Shown piece by piece: positions 9,134-28,024 of a stretch of DNA of 31,737 bases. The stretch's first letter is position 1. Every line of letters starts with the position of its first letter. Under the pieces are notes generated by a model. The model made no database searches. It had not been told where the DNA came from and saw only the letters and a list, made by a program, of their open reading frames with translations. A program made the position numbers and the translations under genes. Source of the DNA: an uncultured Litorilinea sp. (GTDB taxonomy: Bacteria; Chloroflexota; Anaerolineae; Caldilineales; Caldilineaceae); the NCBI GenBank assembly GCA_964372065.1, contig CAYJQA010000002.1, positions 1,453 to 33,189 of the forward strand, read 5' to 3'.

Positions 9134-10564
9134 CTACCCCAACTTGTAGGCGGCCTTGGCGAGCCCATACGCAGCGGCGTGGATCATCTCGCGCGCGTCC
9201 TCTTCGTCGATGACATGGCGCACGACCAGGTTCGCCAACCAGTTGGCATCCACGCGCCGCGCCAGGTCATGGCGCGCCGGAATGGACGGGTAGGCGCGCG
9301 TGTCGTCGTTGAAGCCAACCGTATTGTAGAGGCCCGCGGTCTCGCTCACCGCCTCGCGGAAACGCATCATGCCGTTCCACGAGTCATAGAACCACCAGGG
9401 CGGCCCCAGACGCATGGCGGGATAGTGACCGGCCAGGGGGGCCAACTCACGCGCGAAGGTCGTCTCGTCCAGCGTAAAGACGATGAAGGTGAAGCCCGGC
9501 GCGGAGCCGTAGCGATTGAGCAGCGGGCGCAGGTTGCGCGTGTAGTCGGTGGCGATGGGGATGTCCGCGCCCATGTCCGCCCCGAAACGCTGGAAGAGCG
9601 CCGTGTTGTGGGCGCGCAGCGAACCAGGATGTAGCTGCATGACCAGGCCGTCGTCCACGCTCATGCGCGCCATTTCCATGAGCATGTGGCCGGTGAAGCG
9701 GGTCGTGTCATCCGCGCCGGCCTGTCCGCGCAGGGCGCGGCTGAAGATGGCCTCGGCGTCGACGTCGCCCAGCGCCTCGGTGAAGGGCGTCAACGCGGCG
9801 TGGTCCGTGGCCGTCGCGCCCATCGCCTTGAAGCGGGCGCGCTGCGCTTCCAAGGCCTGGATATAGCTCCGATAGCTCACCACGTCGATCCCCGTCACCG
9901 CGCTCAGGCGGTCGATCTCCTGCCGCCAGGTCGGCGTGTCCAGGTTGACCACGGCATCCGGGCGGAAGGTGGGCCGGATGCGCCCCGGCCAGCCGGAATC
10001 CAGAATCGCCTGATGGTGCTCCAGCCGCGAAGTGGCCGGGTCCGTGGTGCAGAGAACCTCGATATTGAAACGCTCGTAGAGCGCACGCGGGCGAAATTCG
10101 GGCGCCGCCAGACACTCGGCAATGTGGTCGTAGATGCGCTGCGCCGAGGCCGGCGTGAGCTTCTCCGTCACGCCGAAGACGCCGGCCAACTCATCATTGA
10201 GCCACATGCCGGTGGGCGTGCCGCGGAACAAGTAGTAGTGGTCGGCGAAAAGCTGCCAGATGCGCCGGTGGTCCGTCTCGGCGGCGGAACCCCCTTCGCG
10301 CCCGGCAAAGCCGAGCTGTTCCAGCGCGATTCCTTGCGAATACAACATGCGAAAGATGTAGTGGTCGGGGATGATCAGCAGGTCGGCGGGTGAGCCGAAA
10401 TCATAGTCGGGGTCCGCAAAGACGCGCGGGTCCACATGCCCGTGCGGGCAGAGCAGCGGCAGCCCGGCGACGGTCTCATAGAGCGCCAGCGCGATGCGCT
10501 TTTGGGCCGGGTCGGCGTCGAAATAGCGATCGACGGGTCGCGGGAGCGTTGGCTCGGTTTTCAT
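9134..10564 (-). CDS. uxaC: Uronate (glucuronate/galacturonate) isomerase
   Basis: CPHGHVDP, DHYIFRML, LCTTD, FRPD, VMQLHPG, LGPPWWF.DS, GFNDDTRA..SIPARHD.ARR. ATG 10564 has SD GGAGGA; the track's upstream extension is spurious. Confidence 0.93.
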   Translation of the reverse strand: MKTEPTLPRPVDRYFDADPAQKRIALALYETVAGLPLLCPHGHVDPRVFADPDYDFGSPADLLIIPDHYIFRMLYSQGIALEQLGFAGREGGSAAETDHRRIWQLFADHYYLFRGTPTGMWLNDELAGVFGVTEKLTPASAQRIYDHIAECLAAPEFRPRALYERFNIEVLCTTDPATSRLEHHQAILDSGWPGRIRPTFRPDAVVNLDTPTWRQEIDRLSAVTGIDVVSYRSYIQALEAQRARFKAMGATATDHAALTPFTEALGDVDAEAIFSRALRGQAGADDTTRFTGHMLMEMARMSVDDGLVMQLHPGSLRAHNTALFQRFGADMGADIPIATDYTRNLRPLLNRYGSAPGFTFIVFTLDETTFARELAPLAGHYPAMRLGPPWWFYDSWNGMMRFREAVSETAGLYNTVGFNDDTRAYPSIPARHDLARRVDANWLANLVVRHVIDEEDAREMIHAAAYGLAKAAYKLG

Positions 10565-10656
10565 CGTGTGTCCTCCGGGTGGAGTGCAGGCCGGGTGAGG
10601 TGCGGGACTGAGACAGTGGCAGCGCCGGATGGCCCGCCTGCCCGTGCGCTCCCTTG

Positions 10657-10686
10657 AGTATACCCGCGCGCCCGCCGTGGCCTCAA
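10657..10686 (-). promoter_or_regulatory. Possible promoter for uxaC
   Basis: Minus strand TTGAGG (10686-10681), 18 nt, TATACT (10662-10657). Confidence 0.4.
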
Positions 10687-10714
10687 ACGGCAGGACGGCT
10701 GCATCCGGCGCTGC

Positions 10715-10743
10715 TTGTCGCGTGTGGCCTGCTCGGCTATGAT
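10715..10743 (+). promoter_or_regulatory. Promoter placing the predicted TSS on the ATG of the di-heme protein gene (leaderless)
   Basis: TTGTCG (10715-10720), 17 nt, TATGAT (10738-10743), 6 nt, ATG at 10750. No SD. Confidence 0.62.
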
Positions 10744-10749
10744 GGGGCC

Positions 10750-13700
10750 ATGCTTCGCCACCGGCTGGGATCGTCCATACGACCAACCATGCGCCTCGTC
10801 GCGCTCCTGATCGTCGCGCTCTGGCTGGCGCCCGCGCCGGACCGCGCCCAAGGCCAGACCAACCTGATCGCCAATCGCACCTATGGCGAAGACCAGATCT
10901 TCAAGGTGATGGGTCGGCTGAACGCCCAGAACGGCGCACCCCAGGAGCATAGCAGTGTGGTCGTCCACCAAGGCTATGTGGTGGAGGTCTATTCCCAGGA
11001 GAACGACCGGCCACAGGCGGGCATCGCCGTCTTCGACTTCAGCGACCCCAGCGCTCCGCGTCTCATCTCGCGCACCGAGGAAGGCGCGGACAAGCTCTCC
11101 GAACAACACGCTATCGGCTTCGCCCACCAAGACGGCCGCGACTATGCGGCGCTGCTCGCCATCGACGGCGTCGAGATCTGGGACTGGACCGACATGGCCG
11201 CGCCCAAGCAGGTCAGCCAACTGGCGCTGCCGGGCGTGGAGTTCGGCTACGCGCGCGGGGCCTGGTGGTTGGCCTGGCAAGCGCCCTACCTCTACGTCGC
11301 CGGCGCATCCAATGGCATCTACATCGTCAACACCAGCGACCCGGCGCGCCCCTTCCTCGCCGACCGCGGGGACGGGCCGAATCCCATCCCCACCAGCCAG
11401 ACCGGCGGTTTTCGCATGGGGCCGATCTTTGCGGTGGGCAATCTATTGGTCGCCAGCGCCAACGACGGTCGCGGCTATGCCACGCTGGACATCGGCGACC
11501 CCGCCGATCCCATCCTGCTGGACACGCTGGCGGGACGCGACGCGCCGCCCTCCTATAGCTCCATGCTCAACGGCAGCGTGCTCTACGCCGTCGGCACGGA
11601 CGATGACCTGTACGGCCTGGACGTGCGCGACCCCACCGCCATCCGCCGCCTGGACGCCGTGCCCGTTTACGGTCGCGGCGGCTACCTCACCATCCAGGAC
11701 AACTTCGCCCATGTGGGCGCATCGGACCATTATGTCAAGGTGGATGTCGCCGACCCCAGTGACTTTCGCGTGGTGGGCAGCGCCACGTCGGGTGAGCCTG
11801 ACCACGACGAGGACTTCGCCGTCGCCGTTGGGAACCTCGTCGTCCTCGGCGACGACCACAATCACGGCAGCTTCATCTTCCCTCACCAAGCCGAGCCGGA
11901 TGTGACCGGCCCGACGGTCAACATGGTCAGTCCCGCGGACGGCAGTCGCAACCAGTCCCGCGCCTCGCGCATCGGCGTCACCTTCACCGACCGCGTCGAT
12001 CTCCGCACGGTCCACGCCGGCACCTTCATCGTGCGCCCGGTGGGCGGTGAAGCGCTGGACGGGACCTACAGCAGCCAGACCGGAATCGTCAACTTCACGC
12101 CCGCCGCGCCCCTGGCGCGCGACACGACCTACGAGATCGTCATCCCCGCGGGCGGCATCCGCGACGTGGTGGGGAATCCGGTGGCGACGACCTTCACCGC
12201 CCGCTTTGCGACCGGCTCCAGCGTGGGCGCGAACTTCTGGTGTCGCGTGGACCCGCCCGCGCCGGTCGAGGTGGAGCAGCTTGCGACCCTGAGCGTGGCG
12301 CTGCTCGACGGCCCGGACGGCGTGAGCTACAGTTGGCGTTTTGGCGACGGCGCGGCGGCCACGCCGCTGTCACCGGAACGGCGCGCGACCTATGCCTGGG
12401 CTGCGCCGGGCCACTATACCGTCACGGTGACCGCCACGGACGGACGCCGCAGCACCGGCTGCTCCGCCCTGTTTACGGTCTATCGCCGCGCGACCAATGG
12501 CGTAGCCCAGGCATCGGGGACCATCACCCTCGACCGCTCCGGCACGCAAGTGTGGAGCGTCAACCCCGACAACGACACCGTGACCGTCGTCGACGCCGTG
12601 CAACTCAAGAAGATGGCCGAAGTCCCGGTCGGTCACCGCCCGCGCACGCTGGCGGTCGCGCCTGATGATACCGTGTGGGTCGCCAACCAAACGGACGACA
12701 CGGTCAGCGTGCTCGACGGCGGCACCACCGCGCGCCTGACCACCGTCAGCCTGCCCAGCGGCAGCGAACCCTACGGCGTGGCCGTCAGCCCCAGCCGCGG
12801 CGTCGTCTACGTCACGCTCCAGAGCACGGGCGAGTTAGCCGAGCTTGATTTGTACGCCCGCGTCGTGCGGCGGCGGCTGGACGTCGGCCCGACGCCGCGC
12901 GCCATTGCGATCAGCGCCGACGGCAACCGCATCTATGTGACACGCTACATCTCCCCCGCCGACCAGGGCGAGGTCGTGGAGATCGACGCGGCGGAGTGGC
13001 GCGTGGCGCGGCGCATCCCACTGGCCTTTGACTCCGGCCCGGATACGGAATCCAGCGGACGCGGCGTGCCCAACGGCTTGGCCGCGGCCGCGGTGTCGCC
13101 CGATGGCGCGCGGCTGTGGATCGCGGGGCGCAAACACAACACGGCGCGGGGCATCACGCGCGACGGCCAGCGCCTCACCTTTGACTCGACGGTGCGCTCG
13201 ATTCTGGCGCAGGTTGACCCGGCGAGCGGTGACGAAGAGCCGGCCGCACGCTACGATTTCAACAATCGCGACGGACCGGTCGCGCTCCAGTTCACCCCGC
13301 TGGGCGATTACCTGTTTGTCGTGCTGGAAGGGTCCAACGCCATCGACGTCATCGACGCCTATAGCGGCCAGTTGGTCACGGCCATCGAAGGGGCGGGCCA
13401 TGCCCCGCAAGGGCTGGTCTTCACCGCCGACGGCTCCAAGCTGTTTGTGGATAGCTGGCTCAGCCGAGACGTCATCGTGTACGATGTGGCCGACTTGGTG
13501 GCGGGCCGCTCCCGGCAGGCGCAGCGATTGACCGAGATCGCCGCGGTCGGCCACGATCCCACACCCGCCGACGTGCTCTTGGGCAAGCAGGTCTTCTACC
13601 TCGCGCGCGACTCGCGCATGAGCCGCGACGGCTACATCACGTGCGCCGGCTGCCACCTGGACGGCCGCGCAGACGGCCGCGTGTGGGACCGCACCGCCGA

Positions 13701-14652: not shown

Positions 14653-14768
14653 CTAGATACTGTCTACAAAGCTCTTGTCACCCTGAGCGACAGCGAAGGG
14701 TCCCGGTGGCGCACCCGAGAAGGGGATGCTTCGTTACGCTCAGCATGACAGATTGCAGACACTCCTAG
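14653..14768. mobile_element. ~116-bp CTAG-bounded inverted-repeat element containing a TGTCA-tagged REP doublet (MITE/REPIN-like)
   Basis: Left arm CTAG-ATAC-TGTCTACAA...TGTCACCCTGAGCGACAGCGAAGGGTCCC. Right arm, reverse-complemented, CTAG-GAG-TGTCTGCAA..TGTCATGCTGAGCGTAACGAAGCATCCCC. Each REP is internally palindromic. Confidence 0.65.
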
Positions 14769-16279
14769 TCGTCCAGCAGCCGCCCGTAGAGGTCCACTTG
14801 GCGGGCCAATGCCTGCGCGTGGATGGCGTGACGCGCGGCGTCGGGCAGGTAGGTCTTGCCCAGCGCAGGCGGGATGGCTGAGGGCCGGTCAATCACGCCC
14901 AGGTGTTCCAGCGCCAGCAGCGCCAGGCCGCGGCTGGTCCCTTCGCGCTCGGAGAGCGTATGCAGCGGTCGCCCCAAAGCATCGGCCATGATCTGGAGCC
15001 AGGCGGGCGAACTGAGAAGGCCGCCGCCGCTGGCGATGAGATCGTGCTGGTCCGTGGCGAGGTGGGGCGCGATCCGCCGGTAGATCAGCGCAAAGCGATA
15101 GGCGATGGCTTCCAGCCCGGCCTGCACCACGTCGACTGGGGTCGTGTGCAGGCTGAGGCCCGTTAGGGCCGCACGCGCATCCTCGCGCCAGCCGGGAGCA
15201 CGCTCGCCCGCCACAAAGGGCAGCATGGTCAGCCCGTGAGCCGCCGGGGCGCGGGCCGCCAACTCCTGTTCCAGCGCGTCGCCGTCGGGCAGCCGCAGCA
15301 AGCCGCGCAACCAGGCATAGAGATTGCCGCCTTCAGTCGTCGCGCCGCCCAAGAGGCCGCGCCGCGCGTCCACGCGGTAGAGCCACAGACCGGCCGGGAC
15401 CTGCGCCACATCCGGGCCGACCACGACCCGCATCGCGCCCGTCGTCCCCATCGTCAGGGCGATGCGCTCCGGCGTGTCGCACCCGCTGCCGATGTTCGCC
15501 GCCGCGCCGTCGCCCACGGGCAGCAGCCAGGGCACGTCGGCCAGCGCGGGCCAACGCGCCGCCCACTCGCCGGCCAGTCCCCGGCAAGGCGTGTTGAGAT
15601 CGCCCAGGGGCGAAAGCTGGTCGGCGGTCACGGGCAGGCGGGCCAGCCAGGCCGCGTCCCAGTTTAGCTCGCGCCGGTTGAGCAGGCCGCTCCACGACGC
15701 CACGCTGTAGCTCACGCGCCAATCGCCAAAGAGGCGAAAATAGAGATACTCGCCTACGCTCACCCAACGCGCCGCGGCGGCAAACCGGGCCGGTTCGGCG
15801 CGGCCCAGCCAGCGGAAACGCGCCGGCAAATACGACGTATGGATCAGGGTTCCCGTACGGTCATGGGCTTGCGCCGCGCCCGTAGGGCCAAGTTCGGCGC
15901 GCAGCGCCTGCGCGTCCACGGCGTTGCGGGTGTCGGCATAGGTAAACACGGGCGTCACTGGGTTGCCCGCGGCGTCCACGCCCAGCACGTTGCCGACCAA
16001 CGTGTCGGTCGCGACCGCGGCGATCCGGCCGCGCAGGTCGCCCGCGCGGGCCAGCAGCGCGTCAATCACACCGATCACGCTTTCCACCAGGTGACCGGCG
16101 TCGAAGACCGCGCCGCCGTCCGGCGTAGTGGTCATGGTCGTGCTGCGCTGCTCCACCATGCCCTCCACGACCTGCGCCCGGCCGTCAAAGAGGATCGCGC
16201 GCGTGGATGAACTGCCGATGTCCAGCGTCAAGGTCAGCGGTGTTGCAAGCGGGAGCCCATTGGGCGCGGCGTCGGTCAC
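14765..16279 (-). CDS. gntK: FGGY-family carbohydrate kinase, gluconokinase-like
   Basis: LDIGSSSTRA, GDGAAANIGSG, MGTTGAMRV, GERAPGW, GLEAIAY, SGGG. Substrate is inferred. Confidence 0.75.
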   Translation of the reverse strand: MTDAAPNGLPLATPLTLTLDIGSSSTRAILFDGRAQVVEGMVEQRSTTMTTTPDGGAVFDAGHLVESVIGVIDALLARAGDLRGRIAAVATDTLVGNVLGVDAAGNPVTPVFTYADTRNAVDAQALRAELGPTGAAQAHDRTGTLIHTSYLPARFRWLGRAEPARFAAAARWVSVGEYLYFRLFGDWRVSYSVASWSGLLNRRELNWDAAWLARLPVTADQLSPLGDLNTPCRGLAGEWAARWPALADVPWLLPVGDGAAANIGSGCDTPERIALTMGTTGAMRVVVGPDVAQVPAGLWLYRVDARRGLLGGATTEGGNLYAWLRGLLRLPDGDALEQELAARAPAAHGLTMLPFVAGERAPGWREDARAALTGLSLHTTPVDVVQAGLEAIAYRFALIYRRIAPHLATDQHDLIASGGGLLSSPAWLQIMADALGRPLHTLSEREGTSRGLALLALEHLGVIDRPSAIPPALGKTYLPDAARHAIHAQALARQVDLYGRLLDD

Positions 16280-16285
16280 GAGGCC

Positions 16286-18112
16286 CTATCCTTCCGATGA
16301 TTCGACGAATTGGCGAGTGTAAAGCGTGGCATATAGACCGCCCAGGGTGAGCAACTCGGCGTGGCTGCCGCGTTCCACAAGCTGCCCGGCCTGCACCACG
16401 CAGATGACATCGGCGTTACGCACCGTGCTCAGGCGGTGGGCGATCACCACCGACGTGCGCCCCTGCAAGAGTCGCTCCAGCGCATCTTGGATCAATGCTT
16501 CCGTCACTGTGTCCACGCTGGAGGTCGCTTCGTCCAGCATGAGGATGCGCGGGTCCGCCATGACCGCGCGCGCGATGCAGATGAGCTGGCGCTGGCCGAT
16601 GGAGAGGTTGGCGCCGCCCTCCATGACCGGCGTAGCGTAGCCCTCGGGCAGTTGGGTGATGAAATCGTGGGCGTTGGCCATGCGCGCCGCTGCCTCCACA
16701 CGCGCTTGGTCCGCGTCCACGACGCCAAAGCGGATGTTATCGGCCACCGCGCCCGGAAAGAGAAACGGGTCTTGGGGGACCAGTCCCATCTGGCGGTGGA
16801 GCGATTGCTGCGTCACGGCGCGCACGTCGATGCGGTCGATCAGCACCGCGCCGCCGGTGACATCATAGAAGCGCCCAATGAGGTTGGCGATGGAGGTCTT
16901 GCCCGCGCCGGTCGGCCCCACCAGCGCCACAGTCTGGCCCGGCTCGATGACCAGGTTGATGTCGCGCAGCACCGGCTCGCCCGGCTTGTAGGCGAATTCC
17001 ACGTCGCGCAGTTCGATGCGGCCCGCAATGGGCGGCATGGCGCGGCCGTCCGCGGGGTCTGCCACTGTGACCGGCGTGTCCAGCAGGTCCAGCACCTTCT
17101 CGCCGCCCGCCATCGCCGCCTGCAGCGTCGTATAGAGTTGGCTCAGCTCTTGGATGGGGCCAAAGAACCGGCTCACATAGGCCAGAAACGCGACCACGAC
17201 GCCCAACGTCAGTTCGCCCTGCGCGACGGACATGCCGCCGACCCACAGCACAACCGCGGTGGCAACCATGCTCAAGAACTCGACCGAGGGCAGAAAGATA
17301 AAGGACAGCGTCATGGCCGCGATGTTGGCGTCGCGGTTGGCCTGGTTGACTTCGTTGAAGCGTTCCTGGCTGGCGTCTTCCTGGGCGAAGGCTTGGATGA
17401 CGCGGATCCCGGCGATGTCCTCGGCCAGATTGCCGACCACCGCCGCGATGCGCGTGCGCGTCTGGCGGTAGGCTTCCTGGGCGTAGCGCGCAAAGATCAG
17501 CGTCGCCACGACCATCAGCGGGACGACCAAGAAGGCCATGAGCGCCAGCTTGGGGCTCATAGAGACCATGACCGCCACGATGCCCACCAGCAGCAGCGTG
17601 TCGCCGAGGATCGTCACCACGCCCTGCGAGAGCAGTTCGTTGATGATCCCCACATCGTTGATGACGCGCGACACGGTGACGCCCACGATGTGGGTGTCGT
17701 GATAGCTCAACGGCAGCCGCTGCAAGTGCTCAAAAAGCTGCGACCGCAGGGTCGCCAGGACTTTCTGGCCGACCCAGGAGAGCAGATAGCTCAACCCCGC
17801 CGACGAGGCGTATGTCCCCACATAGGCGGCTGCGATCAGCAGCGCGGTCCGCGTTAGCCCGGCCAGGTCCATTTGCGTGATGTTGGCGTCGATGGCGACC
17901 TTGACCAGATAGGGAATCCACAGCGTCAGCCCGGTCGATACGACCATGAGGGCCAGCGCCGCCGCCATCATCTTGCCATGCGGGCGCAGATAGGCCAGGA
18001 GCCGCCGCATGACCCGCTGATCGTAGACGCGTCCCTCTTCCGGCGCGGTGCCGAAGCTCTCGATCAGCCCGCGCGGCCCTCCCCCCATGCCACCACCAAG
18101 CGCCAGTCCCAT
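16286..18112 (-). CDS. ABC exporter, fused TMD-NBD half transporter
   Basis: Six-TM domain plus Walker A GPTGAGKT, signature LSIGQRQ, Walker B ILMLDE, IAHRLST. Confidence 0.93.
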   Translation of the reverse strand: MGLALGGGMGGGPRGLIESFGTAPEEGRVYDQRVMRRLLAYLRPHGKMMAAALALMVVSTGLTLWIPYLVKVAIDANITQMDLAGLTRTALLIAAAYVGTYASSAGLSYLLSWVGQKVLATLRSQLFEHLQRLPLSYHDTHIVGVTVSRVINDVGIINELLSQGVVTILGDTLLLVGIVAVMVSMSPKLALMAFLVVPLMVVATLIFARYAQEAYRQTRTRIAAVVGNLAEDIAGIRVIQAFAQEDASQERFNEVNQANRDANIAAMTLSFIFLPSVEFLSMVATAVVLWVGGMSVAQGELTLGVVVAFLAYVSRFFGPIQELSQLYTTLQAAMAGGEKVLDLLDTPVTVADPADGRAMPPIAGRIELRDVEFAYKPGEPVLRDINLVIEPGQTVALVGPTGAGKTSIANLIGRFYDVTGGAVLIDRIDVRAVTQQSLHRQMGLVPQDPFLFPGAVADNIRFGVVDADQARVEAAARMANAHDFITQLPEGYATPVMEGGANLSIGQRQLICIARAVMADPRILMLDEATSSVDTVTEALIQDALERLLQGRTSVVIAHRLSTVRNADVICVVQAGQLVERGSHAELLTLGGLYATLYTRQFVESSEG

Positions 18113-18116
18113 GCGT

Positions 18117-18782
18117 CTATCGCTTTCGTACCAGGGTCATCCCGTCGCCGATCGGCACCAGCGTCAGGTCGACGCGCTCATCATCGCGCAGCTGTGTGTT
18201 AAGCTGGCGAATCGCCTTGATGCCGGCATCTTGGCGGGCGGGGTTAATCACACCGCCGCTCAAGAAGACATTGTCAATCACGATCATGCCGCCGGGCCGC
18301 AGCAGCGTCAAACAATGCTCGTAGTATGCTGGGTAGTTCGGCTTGTCGGCGTCGATGAAGGCGAAATCGTAGGAGTCGCGTTGGTCTCCGTCCGCGACCA
18401 GCGCGGACAGGGTATCCAGGGCTGGGGCCAAGCGCAAGTCAATCTTGTGCGCTACACCCGCCGTTTGCCAATTGCGTTGCGCGATGGCCGCCCATTGGGG
18501 ATTGACGTCGCAGGCAATCAGGCGGCCGTCATCGGGCATCGCCAGGGCGACGGCCAGCGCGCTGTAGCCGGTGAACACGCCGACCTCCAGCGCCCGTGTT
18601 GCGCCCAACGTCTTGACCAGAAAGGCCATGAATTGCGCCTGTTCGGGCGCAATCTGGAGCTCAAATTCCGGCATCTTCTCCGCTTCCGCGCGCACGGCGG
18701 CCAGCTTCGGCGGCTCGCGCAGGGAAACATCCAACATGTAAGCGTTCAGCGGGTCTGTCATGCTGATCGTCCGGCTCGCCAT
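18117..18782 (-). CDS. SAM-dependent O-methyltransferase (caffeoyl-CoA OMT-like, Methyltransf_3)
   Basis: LQIAPEQAQF, ALEVGVFTGYS, DFAFIDADKPNY..YYE, LRPGG.IVIDN, VPIGDGMTL. Confidence 0.92.
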   Translation of the reverse strand: MASRTISMTDPLNAYMLDVSLREPPKLAAVRAEAEKMPEFELQIAPEQAQFMAFLVKTLGATRALEVGVFTGYSALAVALAMPDDGRLIACDVNPQWAAIAQRNWQTAGVAHKIDLRLAPALDTLSALVADGDQRDSYDFAFIDADKPNYPAYYEHCLTLLRPGGMIVIDNVFLSGGVINPARQDAGIKAIRQLNTQLRDDERVDLTLVPIGDGMTLVRKR

Positions 18783-18821
18783 ACGGGTCTCTTTCTAGCA
18801 CAAATCGCGTTGCCGACTGCG

Positions 18822-19997
18822 TCACAGGGCAGGCGTGCGGTACAGGACTTGTCCGCTCACCTTGATCTCCACGTCCAACAGGTACTTCGCCAAGCCCGCG
18901 GTGTTGACCGTGAGGCCCAGACCGGGGCGCTCCGGCGCATGAATCTGCCCATCGGCGTCGCGCTCGATGTGGTCCAGCGTGATGTCCAGCGCCAGTTGCT
19001 TCGGCTCGACCGGATATTCGCTGATGACGTCTGCGCGGATGCCTGCAAAGGGCTGGATGGATGCGCTCAGCGCCAGATGCGACGTGAAGGTATGGTTGAC
19101 GTAGGTCACGCCGTGGGCCTGGGCATAGTCAGCGGCGTCTTTGGCGATGGTGATGCCGCCGATACGTCCGGCGTCCACCTGGATATAGCCGATGCCCGCA
19201 TAGTCGATCATGTGCTGGGCCATGTGGAAGTTATGGCTGCCCTCACCGCCCGCCAGCTTAACCGGCCCCGCCAGCGCGGCCAACCGGGCGTACTCCTTGA
19301 GCGCGCCCGACACAAACGGTTCTTCCAGCCAGGTCGCGCGGGCCGTCAGCAGGGACGGAATCCGCAACGCGGCCGCGGCGAAGTCGGTCTTCCACACGGT
19401 CCCGGCGTCGATCAACAGGATACCCTCGTCGCCCAGCCCTTCGCGTGCGGCCATGAAGTGGTCGGCGTCATCCTGTACCGACCCCAGACCGATCGGCCCC
19501 CAGCCAAACTTGGCGGCGACATAGCCCATGGCCCGCGCCGACTTTCCCTTCGCCAGCGTCTCCTGCGGCGTGTCGCCAAAGAGCATCGACGCATAGGGCG
19601 TCTTGGAGTAGGCGGTGGGATAGCCCAGCAGGGCATACACCGGCGCGTTGAGCCGCTTGCCCAGCAGGTCCCACAGCGCCATGTCGATGCCCGACAGCAC
19701 ATGGTCGGTTTGCAGCAGGTCCATGCTCTCGGCGCGCACCAGATCGCCGATGCGCCGGATGTCGGCAATGTCGTCGAGCCGCTTGCCCAAGACGGACGCC
19801 TGCACCGGCTTGCACGCGCTGTGCGACATGGGGCAGACCAGCCCGGCGATCGAGGGCAGCGGAGCGGCCTCACACTCGCCCCACCCCGTATGACCGCCCG
19901 CCGTCACGCGCACAAGCGTCGCGTCTTGGCTGCCGTCGCCCACGTTGAGGATTTCGGGCATGGACAAATAGAAAAAGTCAACGCTATCAATTTGCAT
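18822..19997 (-). CDS. Enolase-superfamily enzyme, mandelate racemase subgroup (probable acid-sugar dehydratase)
   Basis: GWGE, SGIDMALWDLLGK...PVYALLG, metal ligands IDAG/LEEP/GGEG, QVD and NH general-acid pair. Confidence 0.88.
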   Translation of the reverse strand: MQIDSVDFFYLSMPEILNVGDGSQDATLVRVTAGGHTGWGECEAAPLPSIAGLVCPMSHSACKPVQASVLGKRLDDIADIRRIGDLVRAESMDLLQTDHVLSGIDMALWDLLGKRLNAPVYALLGYPTAYSKTPYASMLFGDTPQETLAKGKSARAMGYVAAKFGWGPIGLGSVQDDADHFMAAREGLGDEGILLIDAGTVWKTDFAAAALRIPSLLTARATWLEEPFVSGALKEYARLAALAGPVKLAGGEGSHNFHMAQHMIDYAGIGYIQVDAGRIGGITIAKDAADYAQAHGVTYVNHTFTSHLALSASIQPFAGIRADVISEYPVEPKQLALDITLDHIERDADGQIHAPERPGLGLTVNTAGLAKYLLDVEIKVSGQVLYRTPAL

Positions 19998-20090: not shown

Positions 20091-20387
20091 ATGAACAGCA
20101 CATTTTGGGGCCTGCCGGTAGAAGTCTGGGTGGGTCTATGTTTGGCAGTCGCGGCCTTCTACACCATGCTGTGGCCGCGGCCCCTGCGGGGCGAGCAGCG
20201 ATCCCTGTGGACGGCTTCCGTCCTGCGCTGGGGCCATGCGCTGGTCTGGGTACTGCTGGCGGCGGCGTTCCTCGCCTACCGCTTCTTCGGGCTGCTGCCC
20301 GCCCAGCTTCTCGGCCTGAGCGGGCTTGCGCTCTACATCGTCTTCATGGCGACCCTACTGCGCCGCCGGGCCAAGCCACGCGCCTAG
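20091..20387 (+). CDS. Small hypothetical membrane protein (3 TM)
   Basis: Three hydrophobic segments, basic C-terminus, SD GGGGAG; fills the gap between minus-strand genes. Confidence 0.7.
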   Translation: MNSTFWGLPVEVWVGLCLAVAAFYTMLWPRPLRGEQRSLWTASVLRWGHALVWVLLAAAFLAYRFFGLLPAQLLGLSGLALYIVFMATLLRRRAKPRA

Positions 20388-21415
20388 ACGGGCGACAGAT
20401 TGCCCAGGCGCACGGCCTTGGCCTGCGCCGTCAGCGCCAGTTCCGAGGCGCGGAAACAGTGCGCCTGGCTCATGGCCGTCTCGGTCCGGTGCAGGATGTC
20501 ATAGGACAACTGGCGGCCATAGGGCAGTTCCACTTGCGAGCAGTCAATGTACCGCGTGCTCTTGCTGTCCACCAAGAAGAGATGGTCGCTGCCCGGTCGT
20601 CCGGCGATGTCGATGTTTTTGCGGACCTCGATGTAGCCGTCCGTGCCGATGACCGTCAAGCGCGTGTCGCCCCACGTAGCCAGCCCCTCCGGCGTGAACC
20701 AGTCCACGCGCACATAGCCCGTGCAGGTGGGCGCGCGGAACAGAATTTCGCCAAAGTCCTCAAACTCCGGATACTGGGGATGGTGGCGGTTAGCCACGGT
20801 CGCGGCGACAACCTCGACGTCGGTCGCCTGGGTGAAGCTCAAGAACTGGTCGCACTGGTGCGCGGCGATGTCGGTGAGGATGCCGCCAAACTTGGCCCGC
20901 TCGAAGAACCACGGGGCGCGCGTAGGGAAGCGCCGCAGGTGCGGCCCCAGCCCCACCGTGTTGACCACCTGCCCAATCGCGCCGTCCAGCACCAGTTGTA
21001 GCGCCTGGGTCGTGGCGCGGTTCTCCATCCGCTCGCCAAAGTCGATCGAGTAGATGCGCCCGGTCTCGGCCTGGACGCGGCGTACTTCGGCCAGTTGCTC
21101 AAAGGTCGTGACGCCCGGCTTGTCGCTCATGAAGTCTTTGCCGTGGCGCATGGCCTGTACGGCGATCCCGGCGCGCTCGCTCGGCACCCCGGCGGTGAGG
21201 ATGAGCTGGATCGACGGGTCTTCCAGGATTTCTGCGGCGCTGGAGGCGGCCTTGCCCTGCGGATAGGCCTTGGCAAAGTCGGCCTGCTGCTTGGGGTCGG
21301 CGGTGATGTAGCTGACCAGCGTCGCACCCGCGTTAAGCATCAAGCTTGTCTGCGAGTTGATGTGCGGGTGGTCCATCCCGATCACGCCAAAGCGGATCGA
21401 CGGTTGTGTACTCAT
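20384..21415 (-). CDS. Gfo/Idh/MocA family oxidoreductase
   Basis: RFGVIGMDHPH, GKDFMSDKPG, GGILTDIAAHQ, VRVDWFTP. ATGA overlap with the upstream SDR; SD AGGGAG. Confidence 0.9.
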   Translation of the reverse strand: MSTQPSIRFGVIGMDHPHINSQTSLMLNAGATLVSYITADPKQQADFAKAYPQGKAASSAAEILEDPSIQLILTAGVPSERAGIAVQAMRHGKDFMSDKPGVTTFEQLAEVRRVQAETGRIYSIDFGERMENRATTQALQLVLDGAIGQVVNTVGLGPHLRRFPTRAPWFFERAKFGGILTDIAAHQCDQFLSFTQATDVEVVAATVANRHHPQYPEFEDFGEILFRAPTCTGYVRVDWFTPEGLATWGDTRLTVIGTDGYIEVRKNIDIAGRPGSDHLFLVDSKSTRYIDCSQVELPYGRQLSYDILHRTETAMSQAHCFRASELALTAQAKAVRLGNLSPV

Positions 21416-22200
21416 GGCGTATCTCCCTTGGATCGGTTGTACTCGTGATACCAACGTTCGCCGTCATGCATCCCAGTCGCAAACAGCCGGAAGGCATCGT
21501 CCACCGGGGCGTAACCGACTACGTCGCGGGTGTTGGTGATGTCCATCCGCTTGAAGCGATTGTCGGAAACGGCCTGCACAATGGCAAATTGCACGCCTTC
21601 CGTCTCGATACACTGCACGAAAAGGTGGGTCAGATCGCGCTTGGAGACAAACGCGCTCAACGTGCGCGCATCCGGGTGCTCGTGGACCCGATTGCCCTCA
21701 AATGCGCCGATGCGTACCGCCACGGTGGAGAGGCCCTCGGCATAGGCAAAGTAGTGGCCCAGCGCCTCGCCAAACGCCTTGCCCACGGCGTAGAGGTTCA
21801 TGGGCTTGACGGGGTCATATGCCTTGGGCTGCACGTCCAGCGGATAGCCCTCGATGACCTGGACGCTGCTGGCAAAGATAACCCGGCGGCAACCCTGATC
21901 CTTCGCCGCACGAAAGATGTTGAACACAGCCTTGATGTTGTTGTCCAGCAGCGATCCATAGAAATCGGCGCGCGTCGACGGGTCCGCCGCCAGGTGCAGC
22001 ACCGTGTCCATCCCTTCGCACACGGCATAGCAGGCCGCCAGGTCGGACAGATCCGCCTGGATCGCCTCATAGGGGCCGGGGTCGCCGATCTTGTCCAGGT
22101 CCCGGTCCACCAGGCGCAGATCGTAGCGGTCGCCGACCAGGCTGCGAAAGGCCGTGCCCACCCGGCCCCCTGCGCCGGTCAAAAGAACTCGACGTGCCAT
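21412..22200 (-). CDS. NAD-dependent SDR, uronate dehydrogenase (Udh)-like
   Basis: VLLTGAGGRVG, VLHLAA, VIFASS, YxxxK (YAVGK), VAVRIG, VSDN, GYAPVD. Its 262-aa length and layout fit the Udh-like group better than full-length epimerases. Confidence 0.8.
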   Translation of the reverse strand: MARRVLLTGAGGRVGTAFRSLVGDRYDLRLVDRDLDKIGDPGPYEAIQADLSDLAACYAVCEGMDTVLHLAADPSTRADFYGSLLDNNIKAVFNIFRAAKDQGCRRVIFASSVQVIEGYPLDVQPKAYDPVKPMNLYAVGKAFGEALGHYFAYAEGLSTVAVRIGAFEGNRVHEHPDARTLSAFVSKRDLTHLFVQCIETEGVQFAIVQAVSDNRFKRMDITNTRDVVGYAPVDDAFRLFATGMHDGERWYHEYNRSKGDTP

Positions 22201-22234: not shown

Positions 22235-23206
22235 TTAGGTGTATACCGGCAGGTCCGGCGCGATGAGCCGGTTGGCGAGCGTGACGCCCGGCGGCACACG
22301 CGCGCCCGTGAGGGCCATCACATCGGCTAACTGCGCGTGCTCGCCCACACAGACGCCGCGCTCCAGGTAGACCCGCGGGCCGATGGTCGCGTGTGGGCCG
22401 ATACATACCCCGTCTTCGACTACCACGGGCGGGCAGAAGGTGACGGACGCATGGGCCTCCGTGGTCGCCACGACCCATTGGTCGGGCGTCTGCGCCAGAA
22501 AATCCAGGTTGAGCGCCAGCAGGTCGGCGGCGTCCGTCACTTGGCGGCGCTCCGCAGTGATGACTCCCAGCACCGCGCCGGTCTCCTCGATCAGCATTTG
22601 GATCGCGTCTTGCAACTCGTACTCACCGCGTGGCGACGGCTGCACGCGCGGCAGCACATCCAGCACGGCGCGGTCAAAGACATAGAGGGGCAGGCTCGAA
22701 ATGTTGGAGGGAGCATCGGCGGGGCGCGGCTTTTCCACAATGCGGCGCACAAAGGGCGGCTCCCACACGACGACGCCCGTGCGGGGGGCCAGGGCAATGT
22801 CGATGGGCATGAGGCTGAGGACCGCAGCCGCAGCGTGCCGCGCCTGGAGGGCGATCAGGTCGCCCACGTGCTCGGGCGCGACCAGGTTGTCGCACGCCGA
22901 CAGCACAAACGGGCCGGTCAGCAGCGGCGCGGCCTGCCTCAGCGCATGGGCCATCCCCAGCCGCTCCGTCTGCGCCACATAGCGCACCCGCACGCCCCAC
23001 GCGTTGCCGTCGCCAAAATAGCCGCGGATCGCCGCGTCGTCCGGGCTGACGACCATCACCAGGTCATCCACGCCGTTAACTGTGAGCGTATCCACCACGC
23101 GGCCCACCAAGGGCTTGCCCGCGACCGGCGACATAGCCTTGGTGCGCGTTTGCGTCAAGGGCCGGAGCCGCGTACCTTTGCCCGCGGCCAGGACTACACC
23201 CTGCAC
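22235..23206 (-). CDS. Sugar-1-phosphate nucleotidyltransferase (RmlA/long-form type with hexapeptide-like C-terminus)
   Basis: LAAGKGTRLRPLT, Q.ERLG.AHA, CDN, VEKP, PSPRGEYELQDAIQ. Confidence 0.9.
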   Translation of the reverse strand: MQGVVLAAGKGTRLRPLTQTRTKAMSPVAGKPLVGRVVDTLTVNGVDDLVMVVSPDDAAIRGYFGDGNAWGVRVRYVAQTERLGMAHALRQAAPLLTGPFVLSACDNLVAPEHVGDLIALQARHAAAAVLSLMPIDIALAPRTGVVVWEPPFVRRIVEKPRPADAPSNISSLPLYVFDRAVLDVLPRVQPSPRGEYELQDAIQMLIEETGAVLGVITAERRQVTDAADLLALNLDFLAQTPDQWVVATTEAHASVTFCPPVVVEDGVCIGPHATIGPRVYLERGVCVGEHAQLADVMALTGARVPPGVTLANRLIAPDLPVYT

Positions 23207-23212
23207 CCGGAC

Positions 23213-24502
23213 CTAGCCTTCCACCGGCGCGGGCAGCAGCGCGGCACGGCCATCGGGCCGGCAGAGGTGAATGCTGTACTTGTCCGCGATCTCCGGGTGC
23301 GCCGTGGGATAGCGGCGATGCACCGCCTCGGCGATTGCGCCGAACGCCGCCGGGTCGATCAGCGCCAGGCAGTTGCCGCGGAAGCCTGCGCCGCTAAAGC
23401 GCGTGCCCAGCACGCCGGGCGTCTGCGCCAGGATCTCGTACAGCGTGACCAACTGCGGACTGCCGCATTCGTAGCACTTGATGGAGCTTTCGCCCGACGC
23501 CGTGACCAAGCGCCCCATCTCGGCCAAGTCACCCCGCTGCCAGGCTGCGACGCCCTGTTCGACGCGCGCCATTTCGCCAAAGAAGTGCTTGGCTCGTTTG
23601 GCCAACGGTGCGTCGAGCGTATGTCCGTAATCGGCAAAGAGGCCGGGGTCGACATGGCGCAGACGCACCTCCGCCGGGAGCGGCCGCCCACCGCGGTCCA
23701 ACAGGGTCGCCGCCGCGTCGCGGCATTGAGCGACCCGGCTGTTGTAGTCGGTCCCCGTCAGGGCATGGGTGACGCCGGAATAAACGACCAACACGCCAAA
23801 GCGGTCGCGCAGGTCGGCGGGGGCCAGCGCCGTGGGTACATTGTCCACTTCGACGGAAGCGCAGTCGATGCGCGTCAAATGGTCGTGGCGGCTGTACAGA
23901 ATGACCGACTGGTCCAGGATGCCGTTGTTCAAGCCAATGTAGCGGTTTTCCGTGTACCGGCAATGGTCCACGTTCTCGCGCTCGTCCACGCTCAGGTCGT
24001 TGGCCGCCTCCAGCGCCAGCAGATAGGCCACCGTCACCGCCGCCGACGAGCTTAGTCCGCCGATGGGCATACTTCCGCCCACCACCCCGATCAGCCCACG
24101 GCGCAGCGCGTGACGCTGCTGCAGGGCCAGCACGGCCCCGCGCACATAGTTGGCCCACTCGCCTTTCTGGAAGGGCGGCACCGCGTCCAGCACAAACGCC
24201 GCGGGCTGGGCGAAGTCCAGGCTTTCCAGTTCCACGCGGCCATCGTCCGTGGGCACAAAGGCGAGCAGGATCGACCGGTCAATGGTCATGCCGGTGACAA
24301 TGCCCAGTTGGTGGTCGATGTGCGCGCCCAACGGCGAAATCCGCAGCGGCGCACGGACCACACGGATGCGCGCCGGGTCAACGCCGGGACGCTCCAGCAA
24401 ACGTCTACGCAATGGCGCGACCTGTTCGTCCTCGGTGTGCGGTTGCACAATGGGCGGCGCGCCGGCAAGTGAGGAGAGGGTAGAGCCGGACGTAAGTGCC
24501 AT
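23213..24502 (-). CDS. GHMP sugar kinase, plant galacturonokinase (GalAK)-like
   Basis: RISPLGAHIDHQ, GLSSSAAV.VAYLLALE.AN, NGILDQS, YN.RV, SGESS..YECG, RFSGAGFRG. 429 aa from ATG 24502, SD GAGGGG. Confidence 0.82.
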   Translation of the reverse strand: MALTSGSTLSSLAGAPPIVQPHTEDEQVAPLRRRLLERPGVDPARIRVVRAPLRISPLGAHIDHQLGIVTGMTIDRSILLAFVPTDDGRVELESLDFAQPAAFVLDAVPPFQKGEWANYVRGAVLALQQRHALRRGLIGVVGGSMPIGGLSSSAAVTVAYLLALEAANDLSVDERENVDHCRYTENRYIGLNNGILDQSVILYSRHDHLTRIDCASVEVDNVPTALAPADLRDRFGVLVVYSGVTHALTGTDYNSRVAQCRDAAATLLDRGGRPLPAEVRLRHVDPGLFADYGHTLDAPLAKRAKHFFGEMARVEQGVAAWQRGDLAEMGRLVTASGESSIKCYECGSPQLVTLYEILAQTPGVLGTRFSGAGFRGNCLALIDPAAFGAIAEAVHRRYPTAHPEIADKYSIHLCRPDGRAALLPAPVEG

Positions 24503-24590
24503 GCAGAATGAACCCCTCGCGATACGCTGAAGCCGCCGCAGCAGCCATCCCCGCGCATTGGCGCGTCGAAGTGAATGGTCGGGCAGCGCG

Positions 24591-24599
24591 TGGTACAAT
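24591..24599 (+). promoter_or_regulatory. Extended -10 element in the kinase/AKR divergent region
   Basis: TGGTACAAT = TGn-TACAAT, oriented toward the AKR gene; no good -35. Confidence 0.45.
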
Positions 24600-24741
24600 G
24601 ACACCATTCTACTCGATGCCAAGGTGACACAAAAATCGACGCGACAATTCTATAGCTGCGTGTCGAGTGCGTCTGACAACTGGTGACCGCGCGGCGTCTC
24701 ATGTACCGCCCGGTCGCCCCATCACAGCGGAGATACTCCTC

Positions 24742-25689: not shown

Positions 25690-25749
25690 ACAGCTAAGTT
25701 TGGTCGAGGAATCAGGCCGGCAGTTGGGCCACGAGTGAGGGAGGAATCG

Positions 25750-26376
25750 GTGAAAACGGTGCTATGTTTTGGCGACTCCAATACGTGGGGCGCCAACCCA
25801 GCCACGTCAGGACGCTTTCCCCGTGAGGGCGCTTGGCCGGCCGTCTTGCGTGACGCGCTGGGCGCAGGCTATTGGGTGATTGACGAGGGTCTGCCGGGCC
25901 GCACGACAGTCTGGGACGACCCCATCGAAGGCTACAAGAACGGCAGGGACTACCTGGTCCCATGCCTCAACAGCCATAACCCCATCGACCTGGTGATCAT
26001 CCTGCTGGGCACGAACGACCTCAAGAAACGTTTCTCCGTCTCGGCCTATGACATCGCCAACAGCGCCGGGGTGCTGGTCGACATCGTCCAGAAGAGTGAC
26101 GCCGGGCCGGACGGCGCGCCGCCGCAAGTCCTACTCATGGCCCCGCCCAAACTGGCTCCCCTGACCGAATATCGCTGGATGTTTGAGGGCGGCGAAGAGA
26201 AGTCCACCCGCCTTGGCGTCGAGTATGCCCGCGTCGCCGCGCTCAAGGGCTGCCACTATCTCGACGCGGGGACGGTGATTGTCTCCAGCCCGCTGGACGG
26301 CATCCACTTTGCGCTGGAGGAACACGCCAAGTTGGGCCGCACCGTCGCGGCCCGCGTGCACGACATTTTGGGATAG
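25750..26376 (+). CDS. SGNH/GDSL hydrolase (arylesterase/acetyl-esterase-like)
   Basis: Block I FGDSNTWG, block II EGLPGRTT, block III LGTND, block V DGIH. GTG start with SD GAGGAG. Confidence 0.92.
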   Translation: MKTVLCFGDSNTWGANPATSGRFPREGAWPAVLRDALGAGYWVIDEGLPGRTTVWDDPIEGYKNGRDYLVPCLNSHNPIDLVIILLGTNDLKKRFSVSAYDIANSAGVLVDIVQKSDAGPDGAPPQVLLMAPPKLAPLTEYRWMFEGGEEKSTRLGVEYARVAALKGCHYLDAGTVIVSSPLDGIHFALEEHAKLGRTVAARVHDILG

Positions 26377-27969: not shown

Positions 27970-28024
27970 GCTAGACACCTTCGTCGTCGAGCGTGCAGTT
28001 TTTCACGTCAAAAGGAGCGCAACT

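Follow-up and report, generated by a model that had tools for sequence, protein, structure and literature searches.

The gene examined here lies in a window of 31,737 nucleotides, that is, the whole stretch of DNA that was analysed, from an uncultured Litorilinea sp. The features on which the argument draws are the following.

9134..10786, minus strand: glucuronate (uronate) isomerase UxaC (Pfam UxaC, 6.7e-70)
14765..16279, minus strand: FGGY sugar kinase (Pfam, NCBIfam)
16286..18112, minus strand: MsbA-like ABC exporter (Pfam, NCBIfam)
18117..18782, minus strand: O-methyltransferase (Pfam, NCBIfam)
18822..19997, minus strand: enolase-superfamily acid-sugar dehydratase (Pfam, NCBIfam)
20384..21454, minus strand: Gfo/Idh/MocA oxidoreductase (Pfam GFO_IDH_MocA and C3 domain)
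21412..22200, minus strand: short SDR of uronate-dehydrogenase/Azf type, P0003, 262 aa (Pfam Epimerase)
22235..23206, minus strand: sugar-1-phosphate nucleotidylyltransferase with a left-handed beta-helix tail, P0002, 323 aa (Pfam NTP_transferase, 6.7e-32, and Hexapep)
23213..24502, minus strand: GalAK-like GHMP sugar-1-kinase, P0001 (Pfam, NCBIfam score, identity, model, trees)
24503..24666, no strand: divergent intergenic region between the kinase gene and an aldo-keto reductase gene, with a TATAGAAT-like element, and GAGGGG before ATG 24502

The window also encodes an MFS_2 sugar transporter, and a GT-C glycosyltransferase is found nearby. The kinase gene translates into an open frame of 429 aa with the Pfam domains GHMP_kinases_N and GHMP_kinases_C (PF00288, PF08544) and GalKase_gal_bdg, and a database protein, P0004, is identical to it across the 429 aa. 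Its phosphate-binding motif II reads GGLSSSAA at residues 148-155, as the GHMP fold demands, and its AF2 model has a pLDDT of 92.2 and a pTM of 0.91. A longer ORF, which begins with TTG and reaches 24622, is probably over-extended; a plausible ribosome-binding site, GAGGGG, precedes the ATG at 24502. The intergenic region 24503..24666 would be a probable promoter region, and a consensus scan gave no match to a sigma-70-type promoter within it. The GC content of the kinase contig (C2) is 65.7% vs a genome mean of 65.0%, and its tetranucleotide profile ranks with those nearest the mean; mis-binning of this contig was therefore rejected as far as composition tells.

Is this kinase a galactokinase, as its automatic names would have it? 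The top-scoring NCBIfam models are those of galactokinase, and the PDB search returned no GalAK structure, its best matches being human GALK1 and Pyrococcus GalK. The initial annotation had expected such a gene to be auto-annotated as galactokinase. This is largely the case, as homologues are mostly called 'galactokinase', 'GHMP kinase' or 'hypothetical protein', but JGI already names some of them 'galacturonokinase' or 'galactokinase/galacturonokinase', and thus the resemblance to GalAK had been seen by the databases before. The scores themselves are low: P0001 stays under all galactokinase cut-offs, with 189.1 bits against the equivalog cut-off of 226.65 for TIGR00131, and 150-183 bits vs cut-offs of 385-509 for four PRK galactokinase models. 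In the Swiss-Prot structural search the first rank is taken by Arabidopsis galacturonokinase Q8VYG2, with 43% identity, TM 0.89/0.90, rmsd 1.9 over 425 residues and E 3.5e-46, so that the match which the initial annotation had named proved real; galactokinases show 27-31% identity, the best of them 31% with E 3e-36. Similarly, galacturonokinase of Camellia sinensis (UniRef V9QNR1) shares 41% identity over 414 residues (E 1e-94), and its cluster scores 292 bits, whereas canonical GalK representatives do not exceed about 200 bits.

The trees agree with the scores. Canonical GalKs form a clade of their own, separated with 100 SH-aLRT in two trees and with 100/100 in the third, and P0001 is outside it in all three; the grouping with GalK that the initial annotation had named as fatal to its reading was thus not seen. 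In the maximum-likelihood tree, P0001 falls inside a Caldilineales clade (99/100), within a GalAK-like group to which Camellia, Spirogloea and Micromonas belong as well. P0001 belongs with the plant-type galacturonokinase and not with ordinary galactokinase. Furthermore, the same genome carries a separate canonical GalK with GRVNLIGEHTDYN and GAGFGG (contigs C273 and C88), and GalT and GalE are not adjacent to the kinase gene, which has a nucleotidyltransferase as its neighbour instead. Despite the names, the models and the solved structures, it is very improbable that P0001 is an ordinary divergent galactokinase (EC 2.7.1.6).

The residues of the sugar-binding site tell the same. All the strings quoted in the initial annotation are present in P0001: SPLGAHIDHQ at 56-65, VAYLLALEAAN at 158-168, NGILDQS at 193-199, YECG at 344-347 and GAGFRG at 371-376. 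They are not chance matches, because they sit within full-length homology to Camellia GalAK. The loss of the galactokinase Glu to Ala and the gain of an Arg are borne out by the alignment with human GALK1, where Ala60 stands opposite Glu43 and Arg375 opposite a glycine of GGGFGG. In galactokinases, the motif-I Glu contacts the C6 hydroxyl of galactose. A column comparison of 112 representatives gives L-I-G-E-H-T-D-Y-N with G at the Arg position for canonical GalKs (Glu in 12/16; Tyr-Asn and the motif III Gly in 16/16), and P-L-G-A-H-I/V-D-H-Q with mostly R at the 375 column for the GalAK-like group including plants. In place of the galactose-binding signature GR-N-LIGEH-DYN and the GalK motif III G-G/A-GFGG, P0001 has LRISPLGAHIDHQ and GAGFRG. 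It equals plant GalAK and differs from GalK at positions 57, 60, 64, 65, 196, 199, 340, 346-347, 370 and 375, and both Camellia GalAK and the eukaryote column consensus share its Ala60, His64-Gln65, Tyr253, Ala372 and Arg375. According to what Yang and co-workers are said to have found in 2009, the specificity of AtGalAK is set by Ala41, Tyr250 and Ala368 (mutants A41E, Y250F and A368S), and the single change A368S reportedly lets the plant enzyme accept glucuronate as well. We take these three residues to correspond to Ala60, Tyr253 and Ala372 of P0001, a mapping that is consistent through the Camellia alignment. As judged by alignment, Arg375 may be near C6 of the sugar.

How widespread is the family, and does this gene bear on the origin of the plant enzyme? 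Relatives occur in at least 496 species genomes; the family is very common among bacteria, so P0001 is an ordinary member of it. Of the 401 genomes sampled from its own phylum, only 2 contain the gene at E 1e-60 or better, so it is patchily distributed there rather than general to the phylum. The sequences with which plant GalAK groups are those of Planctomycetota/Verrucomicrobiota, and not those of this Chloroflexota clade. A green-lineage GalAK nested among bacteria is favoured by the trees (97 SH-aLRT in one and 92/100 in another), but a tree with all bacteria together is not rejected by the AU test (p 0.143), and we therefore claim no bacterial donor for it. Thus the relevance to plant GalAK origin that the initial annotation had seen shrinks to little, and the P0001 gene adds little on that question.

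The partner gene is the next piece of evidence. P0002 begins with a GTG 6 nt after the kinase stop, with GGAAGG just upstream of the GTG. It scores below every NCBIfam cut-off, the best models being Arch_glmU, AglF and rmlA_long, and in the PDB it comes closest to RmlA-type enzymes (E 1e-23). This coupling is conserved. In most close Chloroflexota loci, P0002 orthologues with 43-59% identity are located at most about 340 nt downstream of the kinase, usually at most about 150 nt. Of 83 related loci, 52 have an NTP_transferase gene next to the kinase or close to it, in nearly every case immediately downstream. The paired loci come from Chloroflexota, Acidobacteriota, Verrucomicrobiota, Spirochaetota, Bacillota, Bacteroidota, Latescibacterota and others. 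Since the partner position is filled by two only distantly related nucleotidyltransferase paralogues (25% identity), the pairing is suggested to have arisen more than once. In Bacillota isolates (Proteiniclasticum, Evansella, Gracilibacillus, Amphibacillus and others), UDP-glucose 6-dehydrogenase accompanies the pair, in most cases together with an NDP-sugar epimerase; polysaccharide flippase genes adjoin it in two of those genomes, and a GT2 gene too in Proteiniclasticum. The kinases of these loci have the same Ala/Tyr/Ala-Arg signature. In Planctomycetota, a divergent Gfo/Idh/MocA-like gene follows the kinase in place of the nucleotidyltransferase.

Further downstream, the genes have a sugar-acid character. 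The SDR P0003 finds its best PDB matches in the uronate dehydrogenases 3RFT and 3AY3 (E 1e-21 to 2e-20, about 30% identity), and its best NCBIfam match is the Azf glucose-6-phosphate dehydrogenase, at 151 bits vs a cut-off of 400. It keeps YxxxK (Tyr136, Lys140) and the equivalent of Arg174, while the equivalents of Asn112, His113 and Ser165 are Val, Gln and Ala; these four positions we take to bind the substrate in uronate dehydrogenase (Udh, EC 1.1.1.203). An SDR after the nucleotidyltransferase is conserved in three related loci (L007, L012 and L025). The Gfo/Idh/MocA gene, the true start of which is probably downstream of 21412, is kept in position in L007, L017, L022 and L025 with 59-64% identity. 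The order of the genes at 14765..19997 is the same in Litorilinea sp. L025 and Caldilineaceae L007, and in L018 and L022 the kinase likewise has UxaC nearby. It is from synteny only that we infer that the genes at 14765..19997 share a pathway with the kinase and that the operon extends past its first two genes.

Then what is the sugar, and where does the product go? The reading we favour, with moderate confidence, is that P0001 would be a uronate 1-kinase, probably for galacturonate, which feeds the formation of an NDP-uronate; a uronate kinase was also what the initial annotation had proposed. With ATP, P0001 would phosphorylate a free uronic acid at its anomeric hydroxyl and so give the alpha-1-phosphate; D-galacturonate is the most likely substrate. 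Asp197 would serve as the catalytic base together with Arg54, and Ala60 (for Glu) and Arg375 in motif III may make room for the C6 carboxylate and attract it. The translationally coupled P0002 would then join the sugar-1-phosphate and an NTP, assumed to be UTP, into an NDP-uronic acid, which may enter glycan synthesis or be further processed by the SDR and the Gfo/Idh/MocA enzyme. The kinship with GalAK and the coupling to a sugar-phosphate nucleotidyltransferase together point to a probable recycling of uronic acid into activated sugar. UxaC, the uronate-dehydrogenase-like SDR and the acid-sugar dehydratase within the window count for a uronate. Several points count against a uronate 1-kinase: an identity of 41-43% is insufficient to fix sugar specificity, the neighbours in this clade are partly catabolic-looking rather than biosynthetic, and P0003 is without several of the Udh substrate-binding residues. 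Furthermore, a genome search found no GH28 or PL1 pectinases in the MAG, which is 84.6% complete, and GH88-like matches in it were weak only. The second enzyme counts against it as well, as the plant pyrophosphorylase Sloppy is of the UDPGP family while P0002 is PF00483. Typical RmlA, in addition, has no activity on GalA-1-P (PMC9056299).

It is less probable, though to be taken seriously, that P0001, though a GalAK-family sugar-1-kinase, prefers another substrate, such as D-glucuronate or a galacto-sugar modified or lacking at C6 (L-arabinose, D-fucose or galactosaminuronate), and would still feed the adjacent nucleotidyltransferase. The only characterised family member is at 41-43% identity, and position 375 of motif III is G, K, N or Q elsewhere in the wider family, which suggests several specificities. 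UDP-glucose dehydrogenase and epimerase neighbours suit UDP-GlcA as well as UDP-GalA, and UxaC acts on both uronates. However, all the GalAK-diagnostic residues of P0001, including Ala60, Tyr253, Ala372 and Arg375, equal those of plant GalAK, and the characterised plant glucuronokinase is on a different, barely related GHMP branch (PMC2823444).

Another reading, which we consider unlikely, is that the pair serves catabolism: the NDP-uronate would be oxidised or epimerised by the SDR and the Gfo/Idh/MocA enzyme and passed on to the acid-sugar dehydratase and FGGY kinase in a Leloir-like manner. Downstream of the pair, and on its strand, the closest Chloroflexota loci encode an SDR, a GFO, an enolase- or GD_AH-type dehydratase, a DHDPS-like enzyme and an FGGY kinase. 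UxaC and the MFS_2 transporter are within the window, and in Planctomycetota the place of the nucleotidyltransferase is taken by the divergent Gfo/Idh/MocA-like gene. But we know of no nucleotide-dependent uronate catabolism of such kind, the O-methyltransferase, the MsbA-like exporter and the GT-C glycosyltransferase suit glycoconjugate synthesis, and the Bacillota pair sits within polysaccharide biosynthesis clusters; the catabolic reading also needs the part of the operon that follows from synteny. A broader and equally doubtful idea is that the Caldilineales-type operon (kinase, beta-helix-tailed nucleotidyltransferase, Azf/Udh-like SDR and Gfo/Idh/MocA) handles uronate via nucleotide-activated intermediates, either for Leloir-like catabolism or for a modified (oxidised/methylated) NDP-uronate in an MsbA-exported glycoconjugate. 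To our knowledge, neither route is known in bacteria.

If the favoured uronate 1-kinase holds for the bacterial family, uronic-acid envelope glycans could be made directly from scavenged uronate by many bacteria of soil, sediment, gut and sea, by a route that bypasses UDP-glucose dehydrogenase and 4-epimerase, and a common mis-annotation as 'galactokinase' would be corrected. As far as we know, plants are the only organisms with an experimentally demonstrated galacturonokinase, which there returns GalA from pectin to UDP-GalA by salvage, and a literature search for a characterised bacterial galacturonokinase or uronate kinase found none, only plant papers. There is also a practical side, as Borg et al. 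2020 (PMC7984243) were unable to produce GalA-1-P owing to the instability and weak activity of the plant kinase. The bacterial kinase with its dedicated nucleotidyltransferase would offer a ready two-enzyme route to NDP-GalA, and the cultured thermophile Litorilinea aerophila has a kinase 63% identical to P0001.

Among known systems, the nearest is Arabidopsis GalAK (At3g10700, Q8VYG2, EC 2.7.1.44; Yang et al. 2009, J Biol Chem 284:21526, as cited in PMC8636097). P0001 has the same GHMP fold and the same PLGAHIDHQ, NGILDQS, YECG and GAGFRG motifs, and the step from sugar-1-phosphate to NDP-sugar, which comes next in the plant pathway, would come next here as well. The differences are that P0001 is bacterial (Caldilineales-type Chloroflexota), that a loop of about 15 residues after residue 108 is present in plants and absent from P0001 in the Camellia alignment, and that its gene lies among sugar-acid genes while the plant enzyme serves pectin turnover. 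Compared with the two-step plant salvage by GalAK and the USP 'Sloppy', the putative second enzyme here is of PF00483 instead of the UDPGP family. Canonical GalK (EC 2.7.1.6; human GALK1 1WUU/6GR2, E. coli P0A6T3) has the fold in common with P0001 (TM 0.81-0.85), as well as the GLSSSA phosphate-binding motif and the catalytic Arg/Asp pair, with Arg54 and Asp197 aligned to Arg37 and Asp186 of GALK1; it phosphorylates a galacto-configured sugar at the anomeric position, as proposed for P0001. In P0001, however, Glu43 is replaced by Ala60, Tyr47-Asn48 by His64-Gln65 and GGGFGG by GAGFRG. The plant and animal glucuronokinase GlcAK (EC 2.7.1.43) likewise belongs to the GHMP kinases and supplies a uronate-1-phosphate to a UDP-sugar salvage route, and 'a few bacteria' are reported to have homologues (Pieslinger et al. 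2010, PMC2823444), but P0001 is clearly on the GalK/GalAK branch and thus not a member of that family. Finally, the pairs in Bacillota, Spirochaetota, Bacteroidota and others (e.g. Evansella sp. L068, Gracilibacillus L077/L080 and Proteiniclasticum L066) have a kinase of the same family (42-48% identity) followed directly by a nucleotidyltransferase, as here. Their nucleotidyltransferase, in contrast, is of 243-257 aa, has no beta-helix tail and is 25% identical to P0002, and they are without the SDR, GFO and dehydratase genes that are present here.

The kinase P0001 is encoded by an open frame of 429 codons on the minus strand (window 23213-24502). GAGGGG precedes its ATG at 24502, and the database entry P0004 is an identical 429-aa product; the longer TTG frame reaching 24622 is probably not used. 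Is this protein a plain galactokinase? Pfam assigns the two domains of GHMP kinases and, weakly, a galactokinase signature, and the top NCBIfam model is galactokinase TIGR00131, with 189.1 bits against a cut-off of 226.65; the other four NCBIfam galactokinase models lie far short of their cut-offs. The top solved structure is human galactokinase GALK1 (E 3e-39; 29% identity by Foldseek). Aligned with it, P0001 is a GHMP kinase of the GalK fold whose catalytic and phosphate-binding residues are intact, GALK1 Arg37, His44, Asp46, Asp186 and Tyr236 being Arg54, His61, Asp63, Asp197 and Tyr253. The sugar pocket carries galacturonokinase (GalAK)-type substitutions. The strings on which the initial annotation had based a galacturonokinase-type kinase are all present, namely SPLGAHIDHQ (56-65), VAYLLALEAAN (158-168), NGILDQS (193-199), YECG (344-347) and GAGFRG (371-376), and the alignment confirms the two swaps it had read from them: GALK1 Glu43 becomes Ala60, and one Gly of GGGFGG becomes Arg375. 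Furthermore, Tyr47-Asn48 of GALK1 is replaced by His64-Gln65. In a column census (n=112), P0001 agrees with the eukaryote GalAK group and differs from GalK at 57, 60, 64, 65, 196, 199, 340, 346-347, 370 and 375.

An exhaustive homologue search over 1.84 billion representatives found P-[LIV]-G-A-H-x-D-H-Q in nearly all top matches, while canonical L-I-G-E-H-T-D-Y-N galactokinases were first seen at about 200 bits and lower. Camellia sinensis galacturonokinase (UniRef V9QNR1) is among the representatives, at 292 bits (pairwise 41% identity over 414 residues, E 1e-94), and other eukaryote matches are from Spirogloea and Micromonas. The suspected likeness to Arabidopsis GalAK was recovered at the level of structure: when the AlphaFold model (pLDDT 92.2) was compared with Swiss-Prot models, Q8VYG2 ranked first (43% identity, TM 0.89/0.90, rmsd 1.9, 425 residues), followed by galactokinases only, at 27-31% identity. 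Ala41, Tyr250 and Ala368 reportedly govern AtGalAK specificity, a result attributed to Yang et al. in 2009; through the Camellia alignment, with consistent offsets, they match Ala60, Tyr253 and Ala372 of P0001. By every sequence and structure test applied P0001 belongs to the GalAK family, and its activity is predicted.

The genome holding the window also has a canonical galactokinase, with GRVNLIGEHTDYN, GIMDQF and GAGFGG, split over the ends of two contigs whose sequences overlap there (C273:6-700 and C88:11900-12496). It follows that P0001 is not the GalK of this organism. C467:3900-4817 holds a third GalK-like fragment, which reads GAGWGG. In all three maximum-likelihood trees built with P0001, GalK and GalAK-like sequences, canonical GalK is set apart on a long branch supported at 100%, and thus P0001 does not group with it; it falls in a Caldilineales/Anaerolineae clade (99/100 in one tree), beside the Anaerolineae MAG L012 and Litorilinea. 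That P0001 is a plain galactokinase, as its best-scoring profile and solved structure might suggest, is highly improbable. The proposed relevance to the origin of plant GalAK turned out to be small: green-lineage sequences lie apart from the Chloroflexota clade of P0001, in one rich in Planctomycetota, Verrucomicrobiota and Latescibacterota (97 SH-aLRT in one tree; 92/100 in another). An AU test did not reject a tree in which the bacterial sequences all stay in one group (lnL difference 19.0, p 0.143), and therefore no donor of plant GalAK is claimed.

How widespread is the family? When one genome per species was scanned by pattern, at least 600 candidate stretches emerged, and at least 496 of them encode a relative. 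The best 80 of these relatives come from Chloroflexota, Planctomycetota, Verrucomicrobiota, Spirochaetota, Bacillota, Bacteroidota, Latescibacterota, Calditrichota, Acidobacteriota, Armatimonadota and others, including the cultured Bacillota Gracilibacillus, Amphibacillus, Evansella and Proteiniclasticum. In its own phylum, Chloroflexota, the gene is patchy (2/401 sampled genomes at E 1e-60 or better). Bacterial homologues are numerous, and partly auto-named already. In the large protein collection the closest relatives (59-88% identity) mostly go under 'galactokinase', the expected name, or under 'hypothetical protein', 'GHMP kinase' or 'galactokinase family protein'; JGI already calls a few of them 'galacturonokinase' or 'galactokinase/galacturonokinase'. 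A literature search found no assay of any bacterial GalAK-family member.

In composition, the contig is a typical part of its MAG (5.87 Mb, 84.6% complete). P0001 is translationally coupled to a nucleotidyltransferase, P0002 (323 aa; window 22235-23206, minus strand), which begins 6 bases past the stop codon of the kinase and is closely preceded by GGAAGG. By Pfam, P0002 joins an NTP_transferase domain to a hexapeptide beta-helix tail. It stays below every NCBIfam cut-off, and the solved structures it resembles most are those of RmlA-type enzymes. The surrounding genes are as follows.

Genes around the P0001-P0002 pair
26404-27978, minus strand: PMT_2/ArnT-like GT-C glycosyltransferase, flanking the kinase side
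25735-26376, plus strand: GDSL esterase, flanking the kinase side
21412-22200, minus strand: P0003, an SDR of 262 aa, nearest to uronate dehydrogenases among solved structures
After P0003, minus strand: Gfo/Idh/MocA oxidoreductase
After the oxidoreductase, minus strand: enolase-superfamily dehydratase
After the dehydratase, minus strand: O-methyltransferase
After the O-methyltransferase, minus strand: MsbA-like exporter
After the exporter, minus strand: FGGY kinase
Farther along the window: UxaC, MFS_2 transporter, fucosidase

The order of the pair and the genes downstream of it is common to Litorilinea sp. L025 and the Caldilineaceae MAGs L007, L017 and L022. For P0003, the NCBIfam model of haloarchaeal Azf glucose-6-phosphate dehydrogenase outscores the uronate dehydrogenase likeness, and in the alignment P0003 lacks equivalents of Udh Asn112, His113 and Ser165; it may act on a sugar phosphate and not on a free uronate. 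In related Chloroflexota loci, the GDSL esterase recurs beside the kinase in L007, L019 and L022 (about 9.7 kb away in L017), and PMT_2 in L019, L022 and L025. Since polyprenyl-phosphate sugars are the substrates of GT-C enzymes, one can conceive of a connection to envelope glycans that contain uronate. The UxaC frame (9134-10786, minus strand) is listed with 550 aa, its Pfam match beginning at residue 96; its TTG start is probably too far upstream, overlapping the start of an opposite-strand 1328-aa gene (10654-14640, plus strand) with Big_5, PKD and beta-propeller domains and di-haem cytochrome c peroxidase/MauG-like parts.

Across the family, an NTP_transferase gene is beside or near the kinase in 52/83 loci, nearly always directly downstream and often overlapping or within 20 nt; 7 of the 83, among those without the pairing, stop about 450 nt or less from the kinase. 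The partner takes two forms: one of 316-326 aa with the tail, in Chloroflexota and Thermoanaerobaculia, and one of 243-257 aa in the remaining taxa. Because these paralogues share only 25% identity, the data suggest that the pairing was assembled more than once. UDP-glucose 6-dehydrogenase flanks the pair in Bacillota isolates and several MAGs, mostly with a full-length NDP-sugar epimerase; together these enzymes make UDP-GlcA and UDP-GalA de novo. In Proteiniclasticum and Evansella the pair adjoins polysaccharide flippase genes, with GT2 in the former. The Ala/Tyr/Ala-Arg signature of P0001 is found in 66/80 kinases of these loci. The family is associated with nucleotide-sugar and UDP-uronate genes. 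A mainly catabolic role for the pair, which the dehydratase and UxaC genes of the window might recall, is improbable.

In Planctomycetota the gene directly after the kinase encodes, in place of the nucleotidyltransferase, a protein of 351-399 aa (L010:9221-10276, L049:11205-12299, also L050, L058 and L075). Pfam gave no match for these proteins; those of L010 and L049 are 58% identical, and language-model features suggest that they are divergent oxidoreductases of a Gfo/Idh/MocA-like type. A Gfo/Idh/MocA gene is also present in the window's putative operon. In L007:153-5745 and Litorilinea aerophila (L008:10278-13025) the pair adjoins proteins of 900-915 aa in which the GD_AH (altronate/galactarate dehydratase) domain is duplicated, and in L007 also an apionate-lactonase-like gene and an SGL lactonase.

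Taken together, we favor, with some reservation, a uronate 1-kinase feeding NDP-uronate formation. P0001 would use ATP to phosphorylate the anomeric hydroxyl of D-galacturonate or another uronate, with the C6 carboxylate presumably accommodated by Ala60 and Arg375; P0002 would turn the 1-phosphate into NDP-uronate, destined for glycan synthesis or for further oxidation by the SDR and Gfo/Idh/MocA enzymes. A related kinase acting on a different sugar is the less likely reading.

UDP-GalA synthesis has been held back by a poor plant kinase (PMC7984243), and typical RmlA does not accept GalA-1-P (PMC9056299); P0001 and P0002 may have practical value at these two steps. While the partner in the plant GalAK system is UDPGP, that of P0001 is of PF00483, and the neighbourhood also differs.
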